Part shown: positions 4,110 to 54,731 of the stretch, in pieces
How positions within the stretch are numbered: the first letter of the stretch is position 1
Layout of the letters: every line of letters begins with the position of its first letter
Source: Candidatus Woykebacteria bacterium
GTDB lineage: Bacteria; Patescibacteriota; Microgenomatia; Woykebacterales; RBG-16-39-9b
Reading direction: 5' to 3'
DNA length: 64,000 bases
Assembly: GCA_040876265.1 (NCBI GenBank)
Contig: JBBDPN010000001.1
Coordinates: forward strand, 246,208-310,207
Position numbers and translations under genes: made by a program
The notes under the pieces: generated by a model
The model's database searches: none
Told to the model about the DNA's origin: nothing
The model's input: the letters and a program-made list of their open reading frames with translations, nothing else

Positions 4110-4751
4110 ATGGACTTCATTCGCGCCAACAAAGCAGCCAGTTGGTTATTTTTAGGGTTTTTAACCGCACTCCTCCTATTAACTGCATTGGTTGCGGTAG
4201 GTGAGACAGAGACTTTTGATTATAACGCACTTTCCTACGTGACCAATATAGACTCCTACCCGCTCAGCTGGTTTATGATTTTTATTTCCAGTTTTGGCGA
4301 CGGGTTTTTCCCTATAATCTTCTTCTTCGCTTTTGCCTTTGCTCTACTGCTCAAGGGTTATAAGCGGCAATCTTACTTCTCTTTTTTAACATGGATCGGC
4401 CCGCTAATATCTTTTATTCTAAAGATAGTCGTTGCCCGACCACGACCAGAAGGTTTTTTAGACGCAAATTACTTTCTACTTGCTGATTTTGGTTACCCCA
4501 GTGGTCACGTTGTCTTTTATACAGTTTTCTTTGGCTTGGTTTTTCTTTACGCTCTTAGCCTACCCAAAATAGCTAGATTTGGAAGAATACTACTTAGTGC
4601 TGTCTCGCTAAGTTTAATTTTTTTAATTGGATTTTCTCGAATTTTTTTGGGAGTTCACTACCCTACCGATGTAATTGGTGGTTACCTATTGGGGTTTATC
4701 GTCTGGTTTATGCTTGCAATCGCTTATAAAAAATTCATTTACCTAGAATAA
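4110..4751 (+). CDS. PAP2-family phosphatase (undecaprenyl-diphosphatase / phosphatidic acid phosphatase-like)
   Basis: PAP2 motifs are present: KxxxxxxRP (RPRPEG), PSGH, SRxxxxxHxxxD (SRIFLGVHYPTD). Six predicted TM helices. Confidence 0.8.
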   Translation: MDFIRANKAASWLFLGFLTALLLLTALVAVGETETFDYNALSYVTNIDSYPLSWFMIFISSFGDGFFPIIFFFAFAFALLLKGYKRQSYFSFLTWIGPLISFILKIVVARPRPEGFLDANYFLLADFGYPSGHVVFYTVFFGLVFLYALSLPKIARFGRILLSAVSLSLIFLIGFSRIFLGVHYPTDVIGGYLLGFIVWFMLAIAYKKFIYLE

Positions 4752-5111
4752 GTGCGGGATAAAAAGTATCAACCCAACAATTGCCGCGAAAAAGGACATC
4801 AGTAGCACGGCGGCAGCAGAAACATCTTTTGCCAGCCCGGCATCTGGTATCAATTTTTCCTTTACGGCTAGATCAACAACGACCTCGATAACGGTGTTTA
4901 GTAGTTCGGCAGTTAACACTAAAGCGATAGTGATAATGAGGATCAACCATTCAAAACGGCTAAAACCAAGTACCAAGGCTAGAAACACGGCAATAATCCC
5001 AATTATTGCTTGGCTTTGAAAGTTTTTTTGATGAATCAGCGCGTGAATTAAACCTTGGTGAGCTGCTTTAAAACTACTCAATCTTGTTTTGTTATTATTT
5101 TTTCCAATCAT
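4743..5111 (-). CDS. dgkA: Diacylglycerol kinase family protein (DgkA-like)
   Basis: Prokaryotic DAGK fold: three TM helices and an ELLNTxIExxVD motif. The start was trimmed to Met-38 (MIGKNNN) because the longer ORF would run into tRNA-Leu. Confidence 0.7.
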   Translation of the reverse strand: MIGKNNNKTRLSSFKAAHQGLIHALIHQKNFQSQAIIGIIAVFLALVLGFSRFEWLILIITIALVLTAELLNTVIEVVVDLAVKEKLIPDAGLAKDVSAAAVLLMSFFAAIVGLILFIPHLF

Positions 5112-5169: not shown

Positions 5170-5256
5170 GCGGACGTGGCGGAATCGGTAGACGCGCAGC
5201 CTTGAGGAGGCTGTGGGAGCAATCCTGTGGAGGTTCAAGTCCTCTCGTCCGCACCA
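5170..5256 (+). tRNA. tRNA-Leu (anticodon GAG), CCA encoded
   Basis: GCGGACGTGGCGGAATCGGTAGACGCGCAGCCTTGAGGAGGCTG + long variable arm + GGTTCAAGTCC...CCGCACCA. Confidence 0.75.
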
Positions 5257-5334
5257 GGGACGGTTAGCTCAGTTGGCCAGAGCGCCTCGTTTACACCGAG
5301 GAGGTCGCAGGTTCAAGTCCTGCACCGTCCACCA
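5257..5334 (+). tRNA. tRNA-Val (anticodon UAC), CCA encoded
   Basis: GGGACGGTTAGCTCAGTTGG...CCTCGTTTACACCGAGG...GGTTCAAGTCC...CCACCA. Confidence 0.75.
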
Positions 5335-5335
5335 C

Positions 5336-5410
5336 GCCGGGATAGCTCAGTGGTAGAGCGTCCGCCTGAAGAGCGGAGCGTGGGCGGTTCGATTCCGTCT
5401 CCCGGCACCA
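5336..5410 (+). tRNA. tRNA-Phe (anticodon GAA), CCA encoded
   Basis: GCCGGGATAGCTCAGTGGTAGAGCGTCCGCCTGAAGAGCGGAG...GGTTCGATTCC...CCCGGCACCA. Confidence 0.8.
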
Positions 5411-6871: not shown

Positions 6872-7141
6872 TTAGCTAAAAATAGAGGTTTGATCAAAAG
6901 CTCCAGATAAAAGACTCCAGACTACGAACCCAATCACAACCAAATAAAGAACACCCATTAAGAACCACAAAAATTTATCAAAAACTTTAGCTAAAGGACC
7001 TGGTTGGTTTATTATTTGAGGTGTTTCAGCGGACTGTGGTGAAGATACAGCTAAGTTTTGGCCAACATAGATACGATCATAGGGACACCAATAAGTATTA
7101 CTTACTCGTGTTACAGTACTACCACACACCGGGCAGTTCAT
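6872..7141 (-). CDS. Zinc-ribbon plus single-TM hypothetical protein
   Basis: CPVCG...CPYD zinc ribbon at the N-terminus and a hydrophobic helix at the C-terminus. Confidence 0.45.
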   Translation of the reverse strand: MNCPVCGSTVTRVSNTYWCPYDRIYVGQNLAVSSPQSAETPQIINQPGPLAKVFDKFLWFLMGVLYLVVIGFVVWSLLSGAFDQTSIFS

Positions 7142-7208
7142 AACACTATTTTACGTCGATTTCCAATCGATGTAAAACATCTTCTTATAGATATTCTATT
7201 TAGTATAA

Positions 7209-7295
7209 TGGTGGGGACGGTGGGAATCGAACCCACACGAGCTTTTAGCTCCCAGGATTTTAAGTCCTGTGCGTCTACCGTTCCGCCACATCCCC
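7209..7295 (-). tRNA. tRNA-Leu (anticodon UAA), long variable arm, CCA encoded
   Basis: Reverse complement GGGGATGTGGCGGAACGGTAGACGCACAGGACTTAAAATCCTG + variable arm + GGTTCGATTCC..CCCCACCA. Confidence 0.8.
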
Positions 7296-7506
7296 AGTTG
7301 GCTAAAGCCGTAGCGTATCCTTAGCAACTCTAGTTGTGCAGGATCTGAAAGGGTACTTAGCTCACAAAGTGGTCGCAAATCGCTGAAGCGATTTATTTTC
7401 AACACCCCTGCAAATTGACTTTCGGATTATACCAATTCTAGGTTTGCTCGGCAACCGTTTCTGTACCCAAATTCCCGGCTCGATATATTGCACAGTTGTA
7501 TATATA

Positions 7507-8085
7507 ATGTATTTAATGGACCAGCGTAGAATTATCCTGCTACCAGCGGGCGGGGCTTTGGTGTTCTTAGTGTTAGTCTTCGGAGTCCTTTTCTTTACTG
7601 GAGGCGCTGGTGGTGGTCGTAGTGATGAACAAGAACAGGAAATAGTTGAGCAACAGAAAAATAGCTTGATTAGTGCAAACGATAAAGATGGTGATACCAT
7701 CCCGGATAACATTGATCAATTTCCCCTTGATCACGATAATGACGGAATAAGTGACAACAAAGATCAAGATCATGACAACGACGGAATTGTCAATTCTAGC
7801 GATGCCAGCCCGTTTGATCACGATAATGACGGGATCCTTGATGGGTTGGATACAGATGATGATAACGACGGTGTCCCAGATAGCGTGGATAAAAATCCAA
7901 AGGACTATGACAATGACGGGATTCCAGATTCCCAAGATCCAGACGGTGATAATGACGGTGTCCCAGATGGGGAAGACGACACTCCACAGGGTGACGGTTC
8001 TGGAAATGGTGGGGATGGTGGTGACGATGGTTCCTCAGGTGGCTCTTCAGGCGGCTCATCCGACCAACCACTTAGGATTCCTTAA
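7507..8085 (+). CDS. Secreted or anchored acidic protein with thrombospondin type-3-like Ca-binding repeats
   Basis: N-terminal TM helix followed by at least seven tandem DxDNDGIxDxxD repeats and a G/S-rich tail. Start assigned to the ATG at 7507. Antisense and off-frame ORFs in this stretch are repeat artefacts. Confidence 0.55.
   Translation: MYLMDQRRIILLPAGGALVFLVLVFGVLFFTGGAGGGRSDEQEQEIVEQQKNSLISANDKDGDTIPDNIDQFPLDHDNDGISDNKDQDHDNDGIVNSSDASPFDHDNDGILDGLDTDDDNDGVPDSVDKNPKDYDNDGIPDSQDPDGDNDGVPDGEDDTPQGDGSGNGGDGGDDGSSGGSSGGSSDQPLRIP
7705..7990 (+). repeat. Tandem 36-39-nt coding repeats (TSP3-like motif)
   Basis: Repeated gatcacgataatgacgg(a/g)at units are visible directly in the sequence. 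Confidence 0.6.
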
Positions 8086-9394: not shown

Positions 9395-9471
9395 TGGGGT
9401 GGCTGACGGGACTTGAACCCGCGACATCCGGCTCCACAAGCCAGCGCTCTACCAACTGAGCTACAGCCACC
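9395..9471 (-). tRNA. tRNA-His (anticodon GUG) with G-1, CCA encoded
   Basis: Reverse complement GGTGGCTGTAGCTCAGTTGGTAGAGCGCTGGCTTGTGGAGCCGG...GGTTCAAGTCC..CAGCCACCCCA, almost collinear with E. coli tRNA-His. Confidence 0.8.
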
Positions 9472-9474
9472 ATG

Positions 9475-9551
9475 TGGCGCGCCCGGGAGGACTCGAACCC
9501 CCAACCTTGTGGTCCGAAGCCACACGCTCTATCCGATTGAGCTACAGGCGC
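9475..9551 (-). tRNA. tRNA-Arg (anticodon UCG), CCA encoded
   Basis: Reverse complement GCGCCTGTAGCTCAATCGGATAGAGCGTGTGGCTTCGGACCACA...GGTTCGAGTCC..GGCGCGCCA. Confidence 0.7.
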
Positions 9552-9554
9552 ATC

Positions 9555-9630
9555 TGGAGCGCGAGAAGGGATTCGAACCCTCAACCTTCTCCTTGGAAGG
9601 GAGACGCTCTAGCCATTGAGCTACTCGCGC
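9555..9630 (-). tRNA. tRNA-Gly (anticodon UCC), CCA encoded
   Basis: Reverse complement GCGCGAGTAGCTCAATGGCTAGAGCGTCTCCCTTCCAAGGAGA...GGTTCGAATCC..CGCGCTCCA. Confidence 0.8.
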
Positions 9631-12135: not shown

Positions 12136-13101
12136 ATGCAAGAGGAGCTAGGACCAACTGGTGAAGATATAGAACAATACCTACCCCAGAACGAAGTTAT
12201 TTCATCCCCTGAGCTTGCAGACAATAAGTTAGCTGGGATGTGGTCTGGTCAAATTGATATTGAGAGGTTAAAAAGCCAATTTAAATCGCGGGCGGAGAAA
12301 CAAATAATAGAAACCGCTCAAGAGGACCCATTTTTAGGTTCAGTCACTTCTCCCACTGGAAATGTCGAGGTAGAACCATTCGATCGAATAATCTTAGCCA
12401 CATCTTCTCCGATTAAACAGACAATAGCTGCCGAAGTCGCGGAGGAAACTGGTGTTAATATTCAACCTACTCTACAGACCGAGATAACTACTGAAAATAA
12501 GTTAAAGGAGTTCCTCGTTGGAGCACAAACCGGTCCAGAAATAAAGGCTATTGATATCGCTGAGTTAAAACCCCCTGAACTTCCGGATCAAAAGGCACCA
12601 GTACTTTCTATGGATACTATTGTTATTAGTTCCTATAATCGGGTCTTAGAAAAACCAGAGGACCAGGAACAAGCTGCGGATATGCTCAGATCTATGTCGG
12701 GTCAAAACATCCGAATAGTTACTGCTCTTGTTATGCAATATAATTTGCCTTCTGGGAAACGATTGACTTTACGTGAGGGTGTAGAAATAGGACTAAAACT
12801 TCGCCGCTTGCCAGACGAAGAAATTAAAGAATATTGTGAGACACAGAAAGATAGAATGCTGAAAATTGCGGGTGCAATAGATTTTGCTAGTAATGAAGGA
12901 AGGAATTTAATTGATGATACAGAAGAGATAGTGGTTAAATCAGTCCAATTACCTGGTATCTCTGGTATTACCCCTCAGAATCTGCGATTATCTGTCTCCG
13001 CAATCCAGGCTTTGGATACATATTTTCGCGGTGCTCCAAAACACCCAATTAGGTTTTTGATTGAAGAATTAAAACAGATATCTGAAGGTTTTAACTGGTG
13101 A
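12136..13101 (+). CDS. Maf-like nucleoside-triphosphate pyrophosphatase with N-terminal extension
   Basis: ILATSSPIKQ..., ...DTIVIS...EKPEDQEQAADMLRSMSGQNIRIVTALVM matches the Maf/YhdE core. The first ~80 aa have no assignable function. Confidence 0.45.
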   Translation: MQEELGPTGEDIEQYLPQNEVISSPELADNKLAGMWSGQIDIERLKSQFKSRAEKQIIETAQEDPFLGSVTSPTGNVEVEPFDRIILATSSPIKQTIAAEVAEETGVNIQPTLQTEITTENKLKEFLVGAQTGPEIKAIDIAELKPPELPDQKAPVLSMDTIVISSYNRVLEKPEDQEQAADMLRSMSGQNIRIVTALVMQYNLPSGKRLTLREGVEIGLKLRRLPDEEIKEYCETQKDRMLKIAGAIDFASNEGRNLIDDTEEIVVKSVQLPGISGITPQNLRLSVSAIQALDTYFRGAPKHPIRFLIEELKQISEGFNW

Positions 13102-13170
13102 GCCCGGAGAGATTCGAACTCTCAACCCACTGCTTAAGAGGCAGTTGCTCTGCCATTGAGCTACGGGCCC
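13096..13170 (-). tRNA. tRNA-Lys (anticodon CUU), CCA encoded
   Basis: Reverse complement GGGCCCGTAGCTCAATGGCAGAGCAACTGCCTCTTAAGCAGT...GGTTCGAATC..GGGCTCACCA. Its 3' end overlaps the stop codon of the upstream CDS. Confidence 0.75.
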
Positions 13171-13196
13171 GTACTTGTGCGCAGTTAGCCGAATTA

Positions 13197-13273
13197 TGGC
13201 GCGCTTGGTGAGACTCGAACTCACAACCTGCTCCTTAGAAGGGAGCTGCTCTATCCGATTGAGCTACAAGCGC
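13197..13273 (-). tRNA. tRNA-Arg (anticodon UCU), CCA encoded
   Basis: Reverse complement GCGCTTGTAGCTCAATCGGATAGAGCAGCTCCCTTCTAAGGAGCAG...GGTTCGAGTC..AAGCGCGCCA. Confidence 0.75.
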
Positions 13274-21924: not shown

Positions 21925-24774
21925 TCAAGAGGCAGCTATACGATCGGCCGCCAATAACTTCTTGAGGTAACCACCAGTGTAAGATTTTTCGTTCCTAGCC
22001 ACGGACTCGGGCTGGCCGCTAGCAACCACCTGACCACCAGAGTCTCCTCCATCAGGGCCCAAGTCAATAATCCAATCGGCGGTTTTTATAACTTCTAAAT
22101 TATGCTCTATCACGACCACAGTGTTGCCAATATCCACAAGACGATGGAGAACGTTTAGGAGGTTTTCTATATCGGCAAAATGCAACCCTGTCGTCGGTTC
22201 GTCAAGTATGTACAAAGTTTTCCCGGTACTTTTTCGAGACAGCTCCGTGGAGAGTTTAACTCTTTGGGCTTCCCCTCCAGAAAGAGTTGTGGCTGGCTGG
22301 CCCAACTTCATATAGCCTAGACCAACATCATAAAGAGTTGAAAGTTTATTTTTTATTGCCGGAATGTTTTTGAAAAACTTTAATGCCTCGGAAATAGTCG
22401 TATCTAAAACATCGGCAATTGTTTTGTCCTTGTAGAATATTTCTAAAGCTTCGCGGTTGTACCTTTTTCCGCCACAAACCTCGCAGGTAACGTAAACGTC
22501 AGGTAAAAATTGCATCTCAATTTTTACAGCTCCGTCACCCTGGCATGCTTCGCACCGACCCCCCTTAACATTAAAGGAAAATCTCCCTGACTTGTAACCT
22601 CGAATTCTAGCGACAGAGGTTTTCGCGAAAAGCTCTCTTACATGAGAAAAAGCCCCTGTGTAGGTAGCTGGGTTTGACCGAGGTGTCCTTCCAATGGGTG
22701 ACTGATCAATATCAACGACTTTATCGATAAATTCTATACCAGTTATTTTTTTAAACCTACCGGGTTTTATTTTAGAGTTGTAAAAATAATTGGAGAGAGC
22801 TTTATGCAGTATGTCCTCGGCTAGACTGGACTTACCACTACCAGATACACCAGTTATGCAGACAAATTTGCCCAAAGGGATACTTACGTTAATATTTTTT
22901 AAATTATTCTCCATTGCCCCGATAATTTGCAGGTCCTTGCCGATACCACTTCTGATTTTTGCTTGCCTCATTACTTGACGTTTTCCAGAAATATATTCTC
23001 CTGTAAGCGAGTTTTTGCTCTTTACAATTTCAGCCGGTGGCCCGGAGTAAATTACTTCACCGCCCTTCTCTCCAGCAGCCGGACCGATATCAACTAGCCA
23101 GTCCGAAGATTCTATAGTCTCTTTATCATGCTCAACTACGACAACACTGTTACCGAGACCTCTAAGATTTTTCAGCGTACTGATTAATTTGAGGTTATCT
23201 TTTTGGTGCAAACCAATTGAGGGCTCATCTAGGCAATAAAGTACCCCAGAAAGACCCGAACCTATTTGACTTGCCAATCTTATTCGTTGGGCCTCACCAC
23301 CAGCTAAAGTTGCGCTTGTTCTATTTATGGCCAGGTAGTCCAGACCAACGTCGACAAGAAATTTAAGCCTAGCCTGTATTTCTTTTAGTACCTGTTTTAC
23401 TATTTGCTGCTCTTTTTCGGTTAAAGTTAGAGACCAAAACCAACTCTTCACATCTGAAATTGACATACCCGAGATCTCTCCAATTGATTTCCCATTCACA
23501 CTTACATATTGGGCTTCTTTTTTCAATCGACTACCTAGGCAAGTGCCGCAGATTTCTTCCCGCATGTATTTTTGAATTTCCCGTCTGGTCCAATCACTAT
23601 CGGTTTCTTTATATCGACGCATCAGCTCTGGGATCACCCCCTCAAAGCTTGTGTTAAAACTTATCTGTTTTCCAAACCGATTTCTCCCTGACACAACAAA
23701 GGCTTCCGAACTTGATCCGTAAAGAATTACCTTTAATGTTGTCTCGGGAAGTTTACCCAACGGACTACTTAGAGAAAAACCCAAATGATCTGCCAGCGCT
23801 TCCAATCGTCGACTTGTCCAAGTATCGTGAGCCAGGAGTCTTTGCCAAGGAATAATAGCCCCTTCTGTGATTGAAAGCTTTCTATTTGGGATGACTAAGT
23901 CTGGATCAACTGTAAGTTTTGTGCCAATCCCTTGACAGCTTTCGCAAGCTCCGCGAGGAGAATTAAAAGAAAAGGTTCGTGGTTCTAGTTCCGGAAGAGT
24001 GACTTCGTGATCAGGACAAGAGTACTTCTCGGAAAACGTCCGATCTTTTTTTAACGTTGGGCCGCTTACTACTACCACACCGTCGCCCAAACGTAAAGCA
24101 GTTTCGACTGATTCGGTGAGCCTTTGTCTATCCACTGGTAGTTCTATCCTATCGACAACTACTTCTATATCATGTATCTTGTATCTATCCAAGGATGGCA
24201 CTTCACCTATCTCGAAAACTCGACCATCTACCCTCACTCTAACAAACCCCTTTTTTCTCAAATCGCTAAAAATCTCCTCGTAAATACCTTTCCGACCTTT
24301 AATAACCGGCGCTAAAATTACTACCTTTAATCCTTTTTTACCACCGATTTTCATTATTTGATCAACAATCTCTTGCGGGGACTGGGCCTCGATCTTCTTA
24401 CCATCGACTGGGCAATGTGGTGTGCCTATCCTGGCCCAAAGCAATCTCATGTAATCGTAGATTTCAGTGATCGTACCTACGGTAGATCTGGGGTTTTTTG
24501 AAGCGCTTTTCTGGTCAATAGAAATTGCTGGCGAGAGGCCCTCAATTTGATCCACATCTGGCTTTTCCATGAGACCTAGGAACTGCCTGGCGTAAGCGGA
24601 AAGAGACTCTACATAGCGTCTTTGGCCTTCGGCGTAGAGGGTATCGAAAGCTAGGGAACTTTTCCCGGAGCCGCTAATCCCGGTTATAACTACGAGTTTA
24701 TTTTTTGGGATTTCTAAACTGATATTTTTGAGGTTGTGCTCGCGGGCACCTTTTATAATTATCTTATCCTGCAT
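21925..24774 (-). CDS. uvrA: Excinuclease ABC subunit A
   Basis: Two ABC ATPase modules ([10 protein letters not shown] / [10 protein letters not shown]), zinc fingers and an LSGGE signature. Confidence 0.95.
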
Positions 24775-24871
24775 CTTTACTCCAAATAGTGATCAGTTAG
24801 TTTACTACGCTTTGCAAATTTTGACAAGAGTAGTAGAATACTCCTCACGAAAAAAGGAAGGAGGGATTACT

Positions 24872-25171
24872 GTGGACACCATCGAGAAACAGTGGTCGCT
24901 AGTATCTGGTCACGGCTCTGTTCTTTTCTACATCGCCGTGTGCCCTGGTTGTACCACCAAAGACATTGCTGACGCCATGTCGCTGACCCGTCGGACTGTC
25001 TGGGGTGTAATCGGAGATCTTCGCCGTAAGAAGATGATTAACGTCCGGAAGGAAGGTCGCCGCCATCACTACACAGTCAACCTGAATGACGAGTCAAGGT
25101 TCACCCACCCTATCATGGATTGGCCCATGAATCTTGTCCTGGGCGGGATAGTTCATCAGCACTCTAAATAA
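24872..25171 (+). CDS. Winged-HTH DNA-binding protein (MarR/wHTH-like), foreign GC-rich
   Basis: GTG start 7 nt after AAGGAGGG. Sequence ..TTKDIADAMSLTRRTVWGVIGDLRRKKMINVRKEGRRHHYTVNL.. About 52% GC, against roughly 38% for the flanking genes. Confidence 0.5.
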   Translation: MDTIEKQWSLVSGHGSVLFYIAVCPGCTTKDIADAMSLTRRTVWGVIGDLRRKKMINVRKEGRRHHYTVNLNDESRFTHPIMDWPMNLVLGGIVHQHSK

Positions 25172-25760
25172 ACTAAAGATAGGAGATGATCCGTGATATA
25201 ATCTAAACACCAGAGAGACATCATTCGAACTTCCTACTCATGGAGCCGAGCCCAGGCTTGGTAGCCTCTATCTTCGAAAAGAGATTCCCTGAAGGGTGTC
25301 TGGGTTGGGCTCCACCATACCGACTCCGGGGTGAGACTGGGTCCAAGCTCGCGACATTGTGGGCATCCACCACGGGGTCGGTTCCAAAACCTTGAAGAAA
25401 GTTGAGATATCATCATGGACGTGAGAGACAGGAAAACCCCTGTCTCACTGAGGGAAAAGGCACAGTTACCTCAGGTCGCAGACGGCCCCCCTTGCGGTTG
25501 ACCTCCTCTCACGTCCTCCAAACTTTGGGTTCCATCGCGTTGTCCGCAACGACAGAGTAGGCCAGTGGCAATGTGGGACCACCGGCGGGAGTGTTGGGAG
25601 CTTTGGTTCTCAGAAGATGCACCTTCAGTGCCTGGGCTCAAGACTCTCCCGCTCCAAATCGGCTTCAAAACCGTTCTCCTGGGAGTGCCCAACCGGCATA
25701 ATGGAGGAGATGGTTTTGAGGAGTCAACAACGGGTTTAACGGTGGACACACTAACGCTAA
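25172..25760 (+). ncRNA. Candidate large structured RNA or structured 3'UTR, class unknown
   Basis: About 590 nt at roughly 55% GC with no credible ORF. Many strong local hairpins (for example GTGAGAGACAGG..CCTGTCTCAC) and long-range complements (GAGCCCAGGC at ~25246 against GCCTGGGCTC at ~25640). Same strand as the wHTH ORF. Ends at an intrinsic terminator. Confidence 0.3.
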
Positions 25761-25800
25761 GGTTCCAGTATCGCCTCCCTACTGGAACCTTTCTCTATTT
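25761..25800 (+). terminator. Intrinsic terminator closing the GC-rich unit
   Basis: GGTTCCAGTA-tcgcctccc-TACTGGAACC followed by TTTCTCTATTTCT. Confidence 0.55.
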
Positions 25801-27822
25801 CTAAGTAATTTTATTAGCTTCTTTTGCTGTCACAGTTTTTGGAACTTTGAGTTGTTGGTTTTTTAGCTCTAGCATTTGATCGCGGAGGATCGCGGCGCGT
25901 TCAAAGTCCGTTTCTTTAGCAGCCGCCATCATCTCTGCTGTCAAATCTCGGATAAGCCTTTTCACCTGATCTTTCGGTACTTTTGTTAGATCTAATTCCT
26001 GCGTAGTCTCTGCTTCAGGCTGCAATTCCTTTAATCTTTCGCCGATATCGCGAATGGTTTTTTGGATAGTTGCTGGAGTGATATTGTGCTTTCTGTTGTA
26101 AGAGAGCTGAGTTTTTCTTCGACGACTTGTTTCCTCTATTGCCCCCTTCATAGATTTGGTAACTTCGTCTGCATACATGATTACTTTTCCCTCCACGTGT
26201 CGTGCGGCTCTACCAATGGTCTGAACTAGTGAGGTCTTGCTGCGTAAAAACCCTTCCTTATCCGCGTCAAGAATGGCAACTAAAGTAACCTCGGGAAGGT
26301 CTAAACCCTCTCGGAGTAAATTAATTCCCACCAAAACATCGTATTTACCAGTCCGTAAATCTCTGAGGATGTCGATTCGCTCCAATGTATCAACCATATG
26401 ATGAATGTACATAACCTTCATTTCTCTCTCCTGAAGATATTCAGTAAGATCCTCAGCCATTCTTTTTGTTAGAGTAGTAACCAAGACACGCTGGCCCCTT
26501 TTCACTCGGGCCCGAATTTCTTTTATCAAATCTGGAATTTGCCCTTCCGTATCCCTTATTTCTACCTCCGGATCCACAATTCCAGTTGGACGGATGATTT
26601 GTTCTGCAACTTGCTTTGAGATTGAAAGTTCATAGTCCCTAGGGGTAGCTGAAACATAAATAATCGGGCCGATTTTTCGCATCGCCTCCTCAAACGTGAG
26701 CGGCCTATTATCCATGGCAGAAGGAAGCCTAAAACCGTTCTCAATTAGCAACTCTTTGCGTTTTTTCTCCCCATGCCACATCCCTCTTATCTGAGGAATA
26801 CTCATGTGCGATTCATCAATGAACGTAATAAAGTCTTTTGGAAAATAATCTAGTAGGGAAAAGGGGGGCTCGCCCGGTTTTCGACCGTCAAAAAACCGAG
26901 AGTAGTTCTCTATCCCCTTAACAAAGCCCACCTCACGCAGCATCTCAAGATCATAATTAACCCTGTTTGTAATTCTCTGAAGCTCAACCAATTTGTTTTG
27001 CTTTTTTAAACGACTGCCCCACTCATCGAACTCTTCTTGTATTTTTGCCAGGGGATCGTAGGAAAGATCGACCGGGGCGTTATAATGGCGGGCCGGAAAA
27101 ACCATCAACTCGTTCATTTCTTCGATTCTTTCGAAGCTAATCGGGTCTACCTTAGTAATTTTCTCCACCTTATCACTAAGTAGTGAAACTCTGACGGCGA
27201 ACTCTTCGTAGGCTGGATGCAACTCCAACGTGTCTCCCTTTACCCTAAAGGTGGATCTTTTCAAATCCTGATCGTTTCGCTCATACTGCATGTGAGCCAG
27301 GGTTTCTTTGATTTTTTCTATTGGTATTATTTGATCCTTGAACAACGTGAGCGTACTTTGTCGATAGGCATCAGGCGAACCAATATTGTAGATACAGGAG
27401 ACGCTGGCGACTATCAAAACATCTCGTCGGGTAAGCAAGGATTTTGTTGCGGCAAGTCGCAGTCTATCAATCTCTTGGTTTATATCTGAATCCTTTTCAA
27501 TATAAAGATCGATCTGTGGGACGTATGACTCGGGCTGATAATAGTCGTAGTAAGATACAAAATATTCCACAGAGTTGTTTGGAAAGAACTCGCGAAATTC
27601 GGCAGCAAGTTGGGCTGCCAATGTTTTATTGTGAGCAATAATAAGGGTGGGTTTGTTTAGATTGGCCACTATATTGGCCATAGTGAAGGTTTTTCCAGTA
27701 CCGGTAGCACCAAGTAGGGTCTGGTGTCGCAAACCCCTCTCTAGACCGTCTGAGAGCTTTACAACGGCTTCAGGTTGGTCACCTGTCGGTGGCCAAGGAG
27801 CTTTTAATTCAAACTTAGACAT
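25801..27822 (-). CDS. uvrB: Excinuclease ABC subunit B
   Basis: Helicase motifs (GATGTGKTF), beta-hairpin, and a C-terminal UVR domain. Confidence 0.95.
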   Translation of the reverse strand: MSKFELKAPWPPTGDQPEAVVKLSDGLERGLRHQTLLGATGTGKTFTMANIVANLNKPTLIIAHNKTLAAQLAAEFREFFPNNSVEYFVSYYDYYQPESYVPQIDLYIEKDSDINQEIDRLRLAATKSLLTRRDVLIVASVSCIYNIGSPDAYRQSTLTLFKDQIIPIEKIKETLAHMQYERNDQDLKRSTFRVKGDTLELHPAYEEFAVRVSLLSDKVEKITKVDPISFERIEEMNELMVFPARHYNAPVDLSYDPLAKIQEEFDEWGSRLKKQNKLVELQRITNRVNYDLEMLREVGFVKGIENYSRFFDGRKPGEPPFSLLDYFPKDFITFIDESHMSIPQIRGMWHGEKKRKELLIENGFRLPSAMDNRPLTFEEAMRKIGPIIYVSATPRDYELSISKQVAEQIIRPTGIVDPEVEIRDTEGQIPDLIKEIRARVKRGQRVLVTTLTKRMAEDLTEYLQEREMKVMYIHHMVDTLERIDILRDLRTGKYDVLVGINLLREGLDLPEVTLVAILDADKEGFLRSKTSLVQTIGRAARHVEGKVIMYADEVTKSMKGAIEETSRRRKTQLSYNRKHNITPATIQKTIRDIGERLKELQPEAETTQELDLTKVPKDQVKRLIRDLTAEMMAAAKETDFERAAILRDQMLELKNQQLKVPKTVTAKEANKIT

Positions 27823-40395: not shown

Positions 40396-40570
40396 TAATT
40401 ATTTTAACAAAGTTGAAACCTTAAGAATAGTTTGATTTATCAGTGCAATTTTTGGTGAACCTTAGTTTAATGCTGACAAACGAGATTATAGATCAATTGG
40501 TGGAAACTTTCAAAGGCTGGAGTACAGTTTTCAAGGCTTACCCTCTGCAAAACTCCGCTTGCTAGCTCAC

Positions 40571-43297: not shown

Positions 43298-43372
43298 TGG
43301 TGAGCCCGGTGGGATTCGAACCCACAACGCACAGCTTAAAAGGCTGTCGCTCTACCGTTGAGCTACGGGCCC
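43298..43372 (-). tRNA. tRNA-Lys (anticodon UUU), CCA encoded
   Basis: Reverse complement GGGCCCGTAGCTCAACGGTAGAGCGACAGCCTTTTAAGCTGT...GGTTCGAATCC..GGGCTCACCA. Confidence 0.8.
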
Positions 43373-53864: not shown

Positions 53865-54518
53865 CTACCAAAGGTCAGTCCTCTCCTCTTCTCTCCTGGC
53901 CATACGTTTGACGTTGTCTTTGTGCATGATCACTATGTAAGCGCTTGCCAAGAGTGCAGCCAGACCATACCACCAAGAAATTTTCCGGCGGGCAGCCAAG
54001 CGTACCGCGTAGTAGCCGCCGACAATGGATCCAGTGATAGAACCCAGGGACACAATCCGGCTCGAGGCGATTACACCGGTAAACACTCCGACTGCCAGCT
54101 GGATGATATCCCAGAGTCTTCTTTCCCGGTGGGCGGCTGCGAAGAACGTCCCCGCCGTGGTCGAGACTGCTTTCCCACCTTGGAACTTCAGGAAAATCGG
54201 TTTTGTATGTCCAAGGGTTGCGGCGCCTCCAACAAGAAGATGCAACCGGTGATCATTAGGACGAAGCTTTATGGCTACTCGGACCGGTATGTATGCTTTG
54301 GCAACGTCGCAACCGGCCGCAACGATAGCCCAGAAAAGGGCCCGACGAGTACCTAACTTGTACCGTAGCACCCGGAATACGTTTGTACCACCGGTTGCGC
54401 CACTTCCATTCTCTCGAAGATCAGTGCTAGTTAGGATCTTGGTTATGATCCACCCAAAGGGGATGGAACCAAGAAGATATGCACTGGCCAGAAGCATAAT
54501 TCGACCCACTCGAACCAC
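53865..54518 (-). CDS. plsY: Glycerol-3-phosphate acyltransferase PlsY
   Basis: Has GSIPFGW..., GSGATGGTN, and H..KPIFLKFQGGKAVST. About 54% GC, well above the local background. Confidence 0.8.
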   Translation of the reverse strand: MVRVGRIMLLASAYLLGSIPFGWIITKILTSTDLRENGSGATGGTNVFRVLRYKLGTRRALFWAIVAAGCDVAKAYIPVRVAIKLRPNDHRLHLLVGGAATLGHTKPIFLKFQGGKAVSTTAGTFFAAAHRERRLWDIIQLAVGVFTGVIASSRIVSLGSITGSIVGGYYAVRLAARRKISWWYGLAALLASAYIVIMHKDNVKRMARREEERTDLW

Positions 54519-54654: not shown

Positions 54655-54731
54655 GGCCCCGTCGTCTAGTGGCCTAGGATACCTGGTTTTCATCCAGGAG
54701 ATCGCGGGTTCGAATCCCGCCGGGGTCACCA
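54655..54731 (+). tRNA. tRNA-Glu (anticodon UUC), CCA encoded
   Basis: GGCCCCGTCGTCTAGTGGCCTAGGATACCTGGTTTTCATCCAGG...GGTTCGAATCC..GGGGTCACCA. Confidence 0.8.

Follow-up and report, generated by a model that had tools for sequence, protein, structure and literature searches.

We analysed a stretch of 64,000 nucleotides (hereafter the window) from the genome of a Candidatus Woykebacteria bacterium, in which the DNA-repair genes uvrA and uvrB are separated by a GC-rich island that carries a small helix-turn-helix (HTH) gene followed by a segment with no open reading frame (ORF). This segment is very probably a genuine, conserved structured non-coding RNA (ncRNA) gene of an uncatalogued family. 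The gene lies on the plus strand at 25209..25797, is about 590 nt long with 55% GC, belongs to the shorter (type A) of two forms, and was recognized from its fold, the lack of an Rfam match, the lack of an open frame and its homologues. At least four of its helices (H1, H3, H7 and H8) are kept by compensatory substitutions. In its full form, our statement is that positions ~25209-25797 (+) hold a stand-alone, vertically inherited large ncRNA gene that occupies the slot between uvrA and uvrB and acts in trans, and this we favour with moderate confidence.

Boundaries, fold and conserved helices

The signals that bound the gene can be read from the window and its relatives. An extended -10 element (TGATATAAT, 25194..25202, +) would place the transcription start near 25209, and the same element stands at the same place in two related loci, L081 (TGTGGTATAAT) and L082 (TGTGCTATAAT). 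It follows the HTH gene directly in the window and in L082, and the promoter block directly in L081. L001 has no separate promoter for the RNA. At the loci carrying the longer form (type B: L023, L061, L064, L066 and L080), the HTH gene is followed by an intrinsic terminator and then by one or two near-consensus sigma-70 promoters of the form TTGACA-17-TAAAAT. The 3' end is set by the intrinsic terminator that the first-pass annotation had placed at 25761..25800 (+) and that we found as described. Its stem, formed by GGTTCCAGTA (25761-25770) and TACTGGAACC (25780-25789), has 10 bp or more (12 in the minimum-free-energy fold) and is followed by the pyrimidine tail TTTCTCTATTTCT; its 9-nt loop exceeds the limit of 8 set in a consensus terminator scanner, which is the sole reason that the scanner missed this hairpin. 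The terminator abuts the stop codon of the convergent uvrB (25801-25803), and all full-length relatives end likewise with a hairpin and a U-rich tract adjoining uvrB.

The first-pass annotation had also described about 620 nt without a credible coding frame and with dense secondary structure on one strand, and both descriptions held. All six frames of 25172-25800 are broken by 3-10 stop codons, 2-5 of which remain if UGA is read as sense, and Pfam gave no match to the six longest ORFs of the non-coding part. A conserved small ORF over H1 was considered and is unlikely, because its frame varies among the relatives. The plus strand folds at -240.5 kcal/mol (z = -4.8 against dinucleotide shuffles), and the minus strand gives z = -3.4. 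We assign the RNA to the plus strand because the G-U pairs of H1 would read as A-C if the minus strand were the RNA; the polarity of promoter and terminator agrees with this assignment.

As a way to check the RNA, the first-pass annotation had named conservation and covariation in homologues. Relatives were found at the same locus, and compensatory changes were seen in H1, H3, H7 and H8. The sample comprised about five type-A and six to seven type-B sequences, several of them partial, and a MAFFT alignment of the full-length type-A RNAs was too poor for a consensus of the whole molecule. The clearest case is hairpin H1 (UGGAGCC...GGCUCCA, 25241..25317, +), which encloses a CCC-UGAA-GGG mini-hairpin and the motif CCCUGAAGGGUGUC. 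Across five sequences, 11 of its 21 pairs are changed on both sides and 89.5% of cells are paired; none of 500 shuffles was as good, and sliding the partner strand by 1-3 columns left 29-60% paired. The covariance model R2, built for H1, scores 93 bits on the window, which is among its training sequences, and has no match in the type-B RNAs or in the more distant loci L083 and L084.

The H3 domain (25417..25520, +) gives a test of homology across the two forms. An 11-bp stem of GGACGUGAGAG (25417-25427) with CUCUCACGUCC (25506-25516) closes the domain, inside which lie three small hairpins and the conserved C-rich loop GGCCCCCCUUGCGG (ACCUCCUUGC in L061 and L064). In eight RNAs, pair 3 of this stem occurs as A-U, G-C or G-U (A-U in most) and pair 6 as U-A or C-G, with 3 of the 11 pairs being compensatory. 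The model R3 was built from type-B H3 domains only, without any type-A sequence, so that the check is not circular; it recovers both the window (25406-25530, +; 28.6 bits, E = 6.6e-6) and L081 (38.6 bits, E = 8e-9). The window also carries the H3 signature of the family, a GGRCGYGAGRG / CYCUCRCGYCC stem around a C-rich CCUUGCG loop.

A 3' domain made of H7, the junction YCAAAUYGG and H8 is common to the window, L001, L081, L082, L080 and L023, with covarying stems. Helix H7 (25584..25653, +) pairs GGCGGGAG (25584-25591) with CUCCCGCU (25646-25653) around a variable interior; in six RNAs, its stem of 8-9 bp lies just 5' of the junction and shows 2-5 pair types per position. The single-stranded junction itself (CCAAAUCGG, 25654..25662, +) has the family consensus YCAAAUYGGCUUCA into H8; the window and L001 share the identical form CAAATCGGCTTCAA, of which L081, L082, L080 and L023 have near variants. 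Hairpin H8 (CUUCAAAACCGU...AUGGUUUUGAGG, 25663..25721, +; conserved loop UGGGAGU) folds independently at the same position in six RNAs, its CUUC/GAAG closure being conserved while the inner pairs differ. Hairpin H2 (CCGACUCCGGGG...CCACGGGGUCGG, 25320..25381, +) comes from the minimum-free-energy fold; its only equivalent is in L001 (CCGGCUCCAG...CUGGGGUCGG), L081 is without it, and its support is weaker than that of the other helices.

The 5' end carries a purine-rich motif, CCAGAGAGACAUCAUUCG (25210..25227, +), that recurs in L081, L082, L059 and the type-B RNAs. In the minimum-free-energy fold, AGAGAGA (25212-25218) pairs with UUUCUCU of the terminator tail (25790-25796); duplexes of 6-9 bp between the two ends form in all six RNAs compared, which for sequences of such low complexity is weak evidence. 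The unpaired motifs that are invariant in the family are the 5' consensus GGAGAGAAAUCA, CCCUGAAGGGUGU, CCCCCCUUGCGG, YCAAAUYGGCUUCA and UGGGAGU. A linker motif (U/A)CCAAA(Y), noticed by eye, follows H1, H2, H3 and H7 (25314-25319, 25383-25390, 25517-25523 and 25653-25659), and the same linkers are seen in L001, L081 and L082.

Two other pairings were set aside. The long-range complement proposed by the first-pass annotation exists as such, its halves GAGCCCAGGC (25248) and GCCTGGGCTC (25630) each occurring once in the window; however, the pairing is not conserved in L081, L082 or L001, and GAGCCCAGGC pairs locally within the covarying H1. A P4-like pairing of AAGUUGA or UUGAAG (25393-25405) with UCGGCUUCAA, for which L001, L023 and L059a offered apparent compensation, was dropped because the strand on its 3' side belongs to the local hairpin H8, where the covariation is both better and more consistent.

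Two forms of the RNA and the occupants of the slot

The family ranges in size from 500 to about 950 nt by module insertion. Type A (500-800 nt) is found in the window, L001 (JAUYHE010000053), L081 and L082, with a mini version of about 300 nt in L059. Type B (about 950 nt), which carries an extra module of about 90 nt, is found in L023/L074 (L023 is DASVHF010000023) and L080 and in part in L061/62, L064/65, L066 and the second copy of L059. The model R1, which describes the core module of type B, found nothing above 7.7 bits in the window with filters off; the RNA of the window is therefore the shorter type A. L059 has an AT-rich ORF of about 128 aa (925-1338) between its mini type-A RNA and a type-B RNA with its own promoter, an arrangement implying that one locus can carry both forms.

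An RNA class tied to the HTH protein had been among the suggestions of the first-pass annotation, and the relatives contradict it. In L081, the HTH gene has been cleanly lost and the RNA has been kept. Given this locus and the terminator and promoters that type-B loci place between the two genes, the RNA is independent of the neighbouring HTH gene. The same loci bear on the proposal that the segment is a cis element, either a long structured 3' untranslated region (UTR) of the HTH messenger RNA or a buffer or terminator against the convergent uvrB. Such an element would fit two observations: no terminator precedes the RNA in the window, where the HTH gene stops at 25171, or in L001, and the terminator of the RNA directly adjoins the stop codon of uvrB. 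An HTH-less RNA gene, and relatives in which the HTH gene is followed by its own terminator and the RNA is preceded by one or two consensus promoters, are not what it predicts, and a covarying structure of 500-950 nt with invariant loops far exceeds the need of a terminator or stabilizer. Outside Woykebacteria, moreover, searches of the island with blastn and tblastx against 58 loci carrying HTH homologues matched the HTH coding sequence alone, from which it follows that the RNA does not accompany the HTH gene there; the 56 of these loci that are GC-rich show no similarity, either as DNA or in translation, to what lies 3' of the window HTH gene, and in one of them, L002, the leader of thrC lies there. 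We therefore regard a cis element as improbable and retain the stand-alone RNA gene. In this genome, transcription reading through from the HTH promoter, which would overlap the divergent uvrA promoter, probably also feeds the RNA, since no terminator separates the two genes.

In two more distant loci, the slot is occupied differently. L083 (RBG_13_40_15, UvrB 76% identical) has no HTH gene; it has a GC-rich, terminated segment of about 300 nt and then, behind a TTGACA promoter, an array at 6990-7720 (minus strand of the locus) of four tRNAs and two degenerate units that keep the T-loop. The anticodons of these tRNAs are unusual, namely Ile-tat, Asn-gtt (two copies, one of them weak at 35 bits) and Val-aac, the last called by ARAGORN only. 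L084 (UvrB 71% identical) has only a GC-rich segment of about 290 nt ending in GGCUCC-A-CCA.

This array keeps alive a second explanation, together with genome-encoded CCA and a pattern of helices followed by NCCA: the RNA would be a precursor or evolutionary derivative of a tRNA array, from which RNase P and 3' trimming would free tRNA-like minihelices that might serve as decoys or substrates for tRNA-binding enzymes. All 15 tRNA genes of the genome encode the 3' CCA; those of the window lie at 2388-2747, 5170-5410, 7209-7295, 9395-9630, 13096-13273, 43298-43372 and 54655-54731, several of them closely clustered, 1-7 nt apart. In the window, H1 is followed by ACCA and H3, a four-way junction with its closing stem around three hairpins, by UCCA. 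Elsewhere, GCCA or ACCA follows H3 in L059b, L061, L064, L066 and L080, and UCCA follows H1 in L001 and L081, so that N-CCA stands after H3 in six of eight sequences and after H1 in three of five. The trinucleotide is nevertheless variable, with GUUA in L081 and ACCG in L023 after H3, and UCCC in L082 and UCCU in L059a after H1. No T-loop or D-loop is present, ARAGORN and the Rfam tRNA model (RF00005) being negative over all the RNAs, with no cloverleaf; the closing stems are 11-15 bp long rather than 7 + 5; and the 3' domain of H7, junction and H8 has no tRNA-like feature. A precursor or derivative of a tRNA array thus appears unlikely, and we continue with an RNA gene in its own right.

How might such a gene act? 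The RNA may work in trans as a compact scaffold, alone or with proteins, whose conserved junctions and loops would make tertiary contacts or bind proteins or other RNAs, and whose purine-rich 5' end would pair with the pyrimidine-rich terminator tail and so close the molecule. Complementarity to Shine-Dalgarno sequences makes the C-rich loop of H3 (CCCCCCUU here, ACCUCCUU in L061 and L064) a candidate interaction site, with an anti-Shine-Dalgarno role that we hold to be far less probable than the RNA gene itself acting in trans. Candidate jobs would include, for example, the core of a ribonucleoprotein or ribozyme, an RNA-only assembly, or a sponge mimicking the anti-Shine-Dalgarno of 16S rRNA.

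Several points weigh against the reading of the segment as a stand-alone gene acting in trans. The transcript ends at ~25209 and ~25797 are inferred from sequence, as are the action in trans, the closure by the two ends and the role of the H3 loop. In the window and in L001, no terminator separates the RNA from the HTH gene, so that a long 3' UTR is possible in these two. The covariation statistics are thin because the sequences are few and several are partial, and kinship among them inflates the shuffle tests; comparison gives little support to H2 and to the middle of the molecule (25521-25583). The H3 model R3 found no match in L001 or L082. Finally, R1, R2 and R3 found no match in L083 and L084, where something else is in the slot; homology of these segments to the RNA is thus no more than a possibility.

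The uvrA-uvrB island, its winged-helix gene and their origin

The region 24775-25800 is the GC peak of the window. The window as a whole has 41.7% GC, uvrA 43.3% and uvrB 43.6%, against 52.0% for the HTH ORF, 53.3% for 25172-25800 and 55.1% for the RNA body; the 600-nt interval starting at 25201 (0.542) is the highest of the 64 kb (mean 0.417, sd 0.035). The 52-55% GC of the first-pass annotation is thus correct, but the flanks are near 43% and not 38%, and the island adjoins the start of uvrA rather than its stop. Both flanking genes are on the minus strand, uvrA (21925..24774) facing the island with its start and uvrB (25801..27822) with its stop, and exact protein look-up identified UvrA, the HTH protein and UvrB as MEX0621656, MEX0621657 and MEX0621658, respectively, on a 532-kb contig of a metagenome-assembled genome. 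A second GC-rich patch of the window (53865-54518, minus strand, 0.53-0.58), with overlapping ORFs on both strands, was considered as another RNA and rejected: it is plsY, encoding glycerol-3-phosphate acyltransferase (TIGR00023, 131.6 bits, just below the cutoff of 137.2).

An assembly chimera, one of the possibilities raised by the first-pass annotation, is excluded for the island, because a Logan contig (run SRR27977662) is 100% identical to the window over 23872-26171, both GC boundaries included, and nine related contigs have the slot between uvrA and uvrB filled likewise. The order uvrA(-), promoter block, HTH(+), GC-rich non-coding segment, uvrB(-) is common to L001, L023, L074, L080 and L082 and is present in part in the short contigs L059-L066. 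The UvrB proteins of the syntenic Woykebacteria relatives are 78-84% identical to that of the window. Since the arrangement has been inherited across Woykebacteria at this distance, a recent acquisition from a foreign source, as the first-pass annotation had supposed, is unlikely. The sequence DASVHF010000023 is titled Candidatus Nanoarchaeia archaeon; its uvrA and uvrB are bacterial and 78% identical to the Woykebacteria genes, so that the label is probably a misclassification.

These observations also meet the proposal that the segment is decayed coding sequence, inert GC-rich DNA acquired horizontally from Chloroflexota, or an assembly artefact. The high GC content of the HTH gene and the non-coding part is what such an origin would leave, as are HTH homologues that, nearest outside the Woykebacteria subfamily, come from Chloroflexota where labelled (60-67% identity) and a type-B module with a 21-nt identity to GC-rich, probably Chloroflexota, contigs. 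Inert or decayed DNA, however, would not show compensatory substitutions in its helices or retain promoters and terminators; the independent assembly is identical and synteny persists among genomes with UvrB at 78-84% identity; and no translated similarity was found (tblastx against the 58 HTH loci, Pfam), with neither indels nor ORF frames conserved. Such an explanation is hardly credible for the RNA gene, and a remote, old Chloroflexota origin of the HTH gene and of one type-B RNA module is possible.

The HTH gene is the 99-aa winged-helix ORF of the first-pass annotation, which we recovered at 24872..25171 (+) from the ORF list, Pfam and the entry MEX0621657, assigned by NCBI to the BlaI/MecI/CopY family. 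It starts with GTG and is preceded by the Shine-Dalgarno sequence AAGGAAGGAGGG (24856-24866, +). Every Pfam match of its product is a winged-helix domain; only Penicillinase_R is above its cutoff (24.4 bits versus 22.6), confined to residues 32-74, and HTH_Crp_2, MarR_2 and HTH_24 score under theirs. The equivalog level of CopY_TcrY (NCBIfam) was not reached (18.1 bits versus 121.95), nor was the cutoff of the ArsR/SmtB model (19.3 bits versus 55). Among solved structures, those closest to the HTH protein are DNA-binding domains, from NtcA/Crp and from MarR (E about 1e-4). The protein thus shares with BlaI/MecI/CopY, MarR and Crp-type regulators a single winged-helix DNA-binding domain; unlike BlaI/MecI/CopY, it matches the core of this domain only, with no BlaI-type C-terminal dimerization region and no effector domain, and unlike all of these regulators it forms a tight family of its own. 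It is an ordinary DNA-binding regulator, separate from the RNA.

Homologues of this protein number at least 372 by single-sequence search and 899 by profile search, and many source labels are Dehalococcoidia or Chloroflexota. The family, mainly in Dehalococcoidia, has 38 invariant residues across 26 aligned sequences. Of the 58 genome loci found by profile, 56 have 60-68% GC, with titles that are almost throughout Chloroflexota, Chloroflexia or Dehalococcoidia, and the ORF layout around the HTH gene is alike in most of these 56. L002, the only one translated, reads resB-like, lgt-like, HTH, a leader resembling an S-adenosylmethionine (SAM) riboswitch, thrC. The gap between HTH and thrC in L002 (~4290-4760) holds a look-alike, seen by eye, of the SAM-I riboswitch (CTCTTATCCAGAGGGGTGGAGGGA...), probably present likewise in other GC-rich loci of the same layout. 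The subfamily of the window is marked by WG[IV][IV]GDLR[RH]K and FTHP and has about ten sequences, all from Logan or ENA assemblies; a scan of JGI metagenome data with a back-translated pattern of this subfamily gave no matches, so that the lineage seems absent there within the pattern's reach.

Between uvrA and the HTH gene lies a divergent control block (TTTGCAAATTTTGACAAG..TAGTAGAATA, 24799..24839, both strands), in which a promoter scan found overlapping promoter-like sites. The site for uvrA (TTGTCA-17-TAAACT, minus strand) overlaps face to face that for HTH (TTGCAA-16-TAGAAT, plus strand, 24812-24839). The block looks like an operator because it is nearly invariant across Woykebacteria loci (L001, L023, L059, L061, L080 and L082), including the HTH-less L081. 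The HTH protein may be an ordinary transcription factor that acts at this block. A LexA box of the Gram-positive type (GAAC-N4-GTTC) is absent from 24799-24839; in the whole window, a single near match occurs, at 40457.

The type-B module leads to a second RNA. Its 21-nt motif GTTCACCRGTTGCGGGRCTGG occurs in 12 metagenome contigs, comprising one Woykebacteria locus (L074), one chance match in a gene (L070) and ten GC-rich contigs (59-70% GC) that carry no taxonomic label and are probably from Chloroflexota; a scan of viral contigs with the motif gave no matches. Each of the ten carries a conserved small RNA of about 230 nt, bounded by a promoter and a terminator and adjoining a crotonase-like gene (for example, L078 2580-2860; also L069, L071, L072, L073, L075-L079 and L068). 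It is absent from Rfam 15. What the type-B RNAs and this small RNA share is a three-way junction of about 90 nt, in which P1 and P3 covary (14 of 25 pairs compensatory) and P2 and the junction strands GAUUCUCUCAGUU and UCGGGGUGCGUGCAC are almost invariant; R1 scores 62-100 bits in both. The 5' GGUGAAC of the small RNA is complementary to GUUCACC of its core. About 150 nt downstream of the small RNA, L069, L071, L072, L076 and L078 have a second element (GCGCUCACGUUAUGUUAUGAGCCGC...GGCGACGGCUNGUCGCCGGUUUUU; for example, L076 ~640-800) with a TTGACA..TATAAT-like promoter and a terminator and without an Rfam match.

Place among known RNA families

The first-pass annotation had been unable to match the RNA to a known class and had proposed a search with all Rfam models. 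That search bears it out: cmscan with the 4227 models of Rfam 15 over 24600-26000 at E <= 10 returned only three chance-level snoRNA or lncRNA matches, none below E = 6.7, with the RNase P models silent at this threshold, and a scan of the whole window at gathering thresholds returned only the 15 tRNAs. Ten related loci gave nothing at E <= 1 or 0.1, and ARAGORN found no tRNA or tmRNA in the window RNA and no tmRNA in 11 related loci; pair 3 of H3, mostly A-U, also differs from the G3:U70 acceptor pair of tmRNA. The covariance models of ROOL, GOLLD, OLE, HEARO and raiA match neither the window RNA nor its relatives, so that the large ornate RNA proposed by the first-pass annotation was right in kind but is not ROOL, GOLLD or OLE as Rfam models them. 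The suggested ORF-less intron remnant falls away: there is no Rfam intron match in the window region or the relatives, and the RNA, which has its own promoter and terminator, lies between a complete uvrA and a complete uvrB with no intron context. Nor is it a riboswitch or leader by position, as it converges with uvrB, ends at the uvrB stop and has nothing 3' of it on the plus strand. In the literature that we searched, no such RNA is described for Woykebacteria or the candidate phyla radiation (CPR). On the negative searches of Rfam 15 and the literature, the RNA family is new at the family level.

A known family so divergent in the CPR that Rfam misses it (RNase P RNA, tmRNA, a group I or II intron remnant, OLE, ROOL or GOLLD) could be suspected from the tRNA genes that share the locus in L083, as for ROOL and GOLLD, and from resemblances of short motifs. 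The junction CAAAUCGGCUUCA was likened to CR-V of RNase P (ACAGAAnnCGGCUUA), AAGAAAGUUGAG at 25396-25407 to its CR-I, and GUUCAC and UUGCGGG of the type-B module to the group I R and P elements. The CR-V likeness did not survive, because its GGCUUCA strand forms the local, covarying H8 in six RNAs instead of a long-range P4, and no closure of the P1/P2 type follows it. Against such a hidden relative stand also the negative Rfam searches of the window and the ten related loci, the absence of tmRNA by ARAGORN, and the lack of a split gene, a reverse transcriptase or a homing endonuclease. We consider it very improbable, and we see about an even chance that the RNA represents a new, Woykebacteria-specific class of ornate ncRNA with exchangeable modules, one of them common to the GC-rich small RNA of about 230 nt, and with an unassigned job.

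Few large structured RNAs are known in bacteria beyond rRNA, RNase P RNA and tmRNA; OLE, GOLLD, ROOL, raiA and HEARO are examples, and each has pointed to biology that had not been foreseen, for instance cages made of RNA alone or nucleases guided by RNA. The genomes of CPR bacteria are roughly 1 Mb in size and have little spare DNA. An RNA of 0.5-1 kb that is kept at one locus behind near-consensus promoters in such small genomes is therefore probably important to the cell. The second uncatalogued small RNA, of the GC-rich and probably Chloroflexota contigs, has the three-way-junction module in a form that makes it a compact target for biochemistry.

Compared with OLE, ROOL, GOLLD, raiA and HEARO, the family described here is alike in its size of 500-950 nt, its many helices that covary and the invariant nucleotides of its junctions and loops, its GC-rich sequence in an AT-rich genome, its restriction to one lineage, and its own promoter and terminator. 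ROOL and GOLLD often share a locus with tRNA genes (PMC5737381), and the slot of the present family holds tRNA genes in L083. The RNA differs from these families in having no partner gene of the OapA or IscB type; it is not carried by a prophage, its place on the chromosome, between uvrA and uvrB, being fixed. It resembles RNase P RNA in being housekeeping-like in style, strongly promoted, GC-rich and multi-helical, but has no P1-P4 architecture and differs in length and in the order of its modules. The single-stranded (U/A)CCAAA(Y) motif that, by eye, recurs between its hairpins recalls the protein-sponge sRNAs CsrB/RsmZ and CrcZ, whereas the motif is neither GGA nor A-rich and the hairpins are long and individually conserved. 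With tRNA arrays and minihelices it has in common the N-CCA that follows H1 and H3 in part of the sequences, in a genome whose tRNA genes all encode CCA, and the array in the L083 slot; it differs from tRNA in having no cloverleaf, no T or D loops and a CCA that is not invariant.

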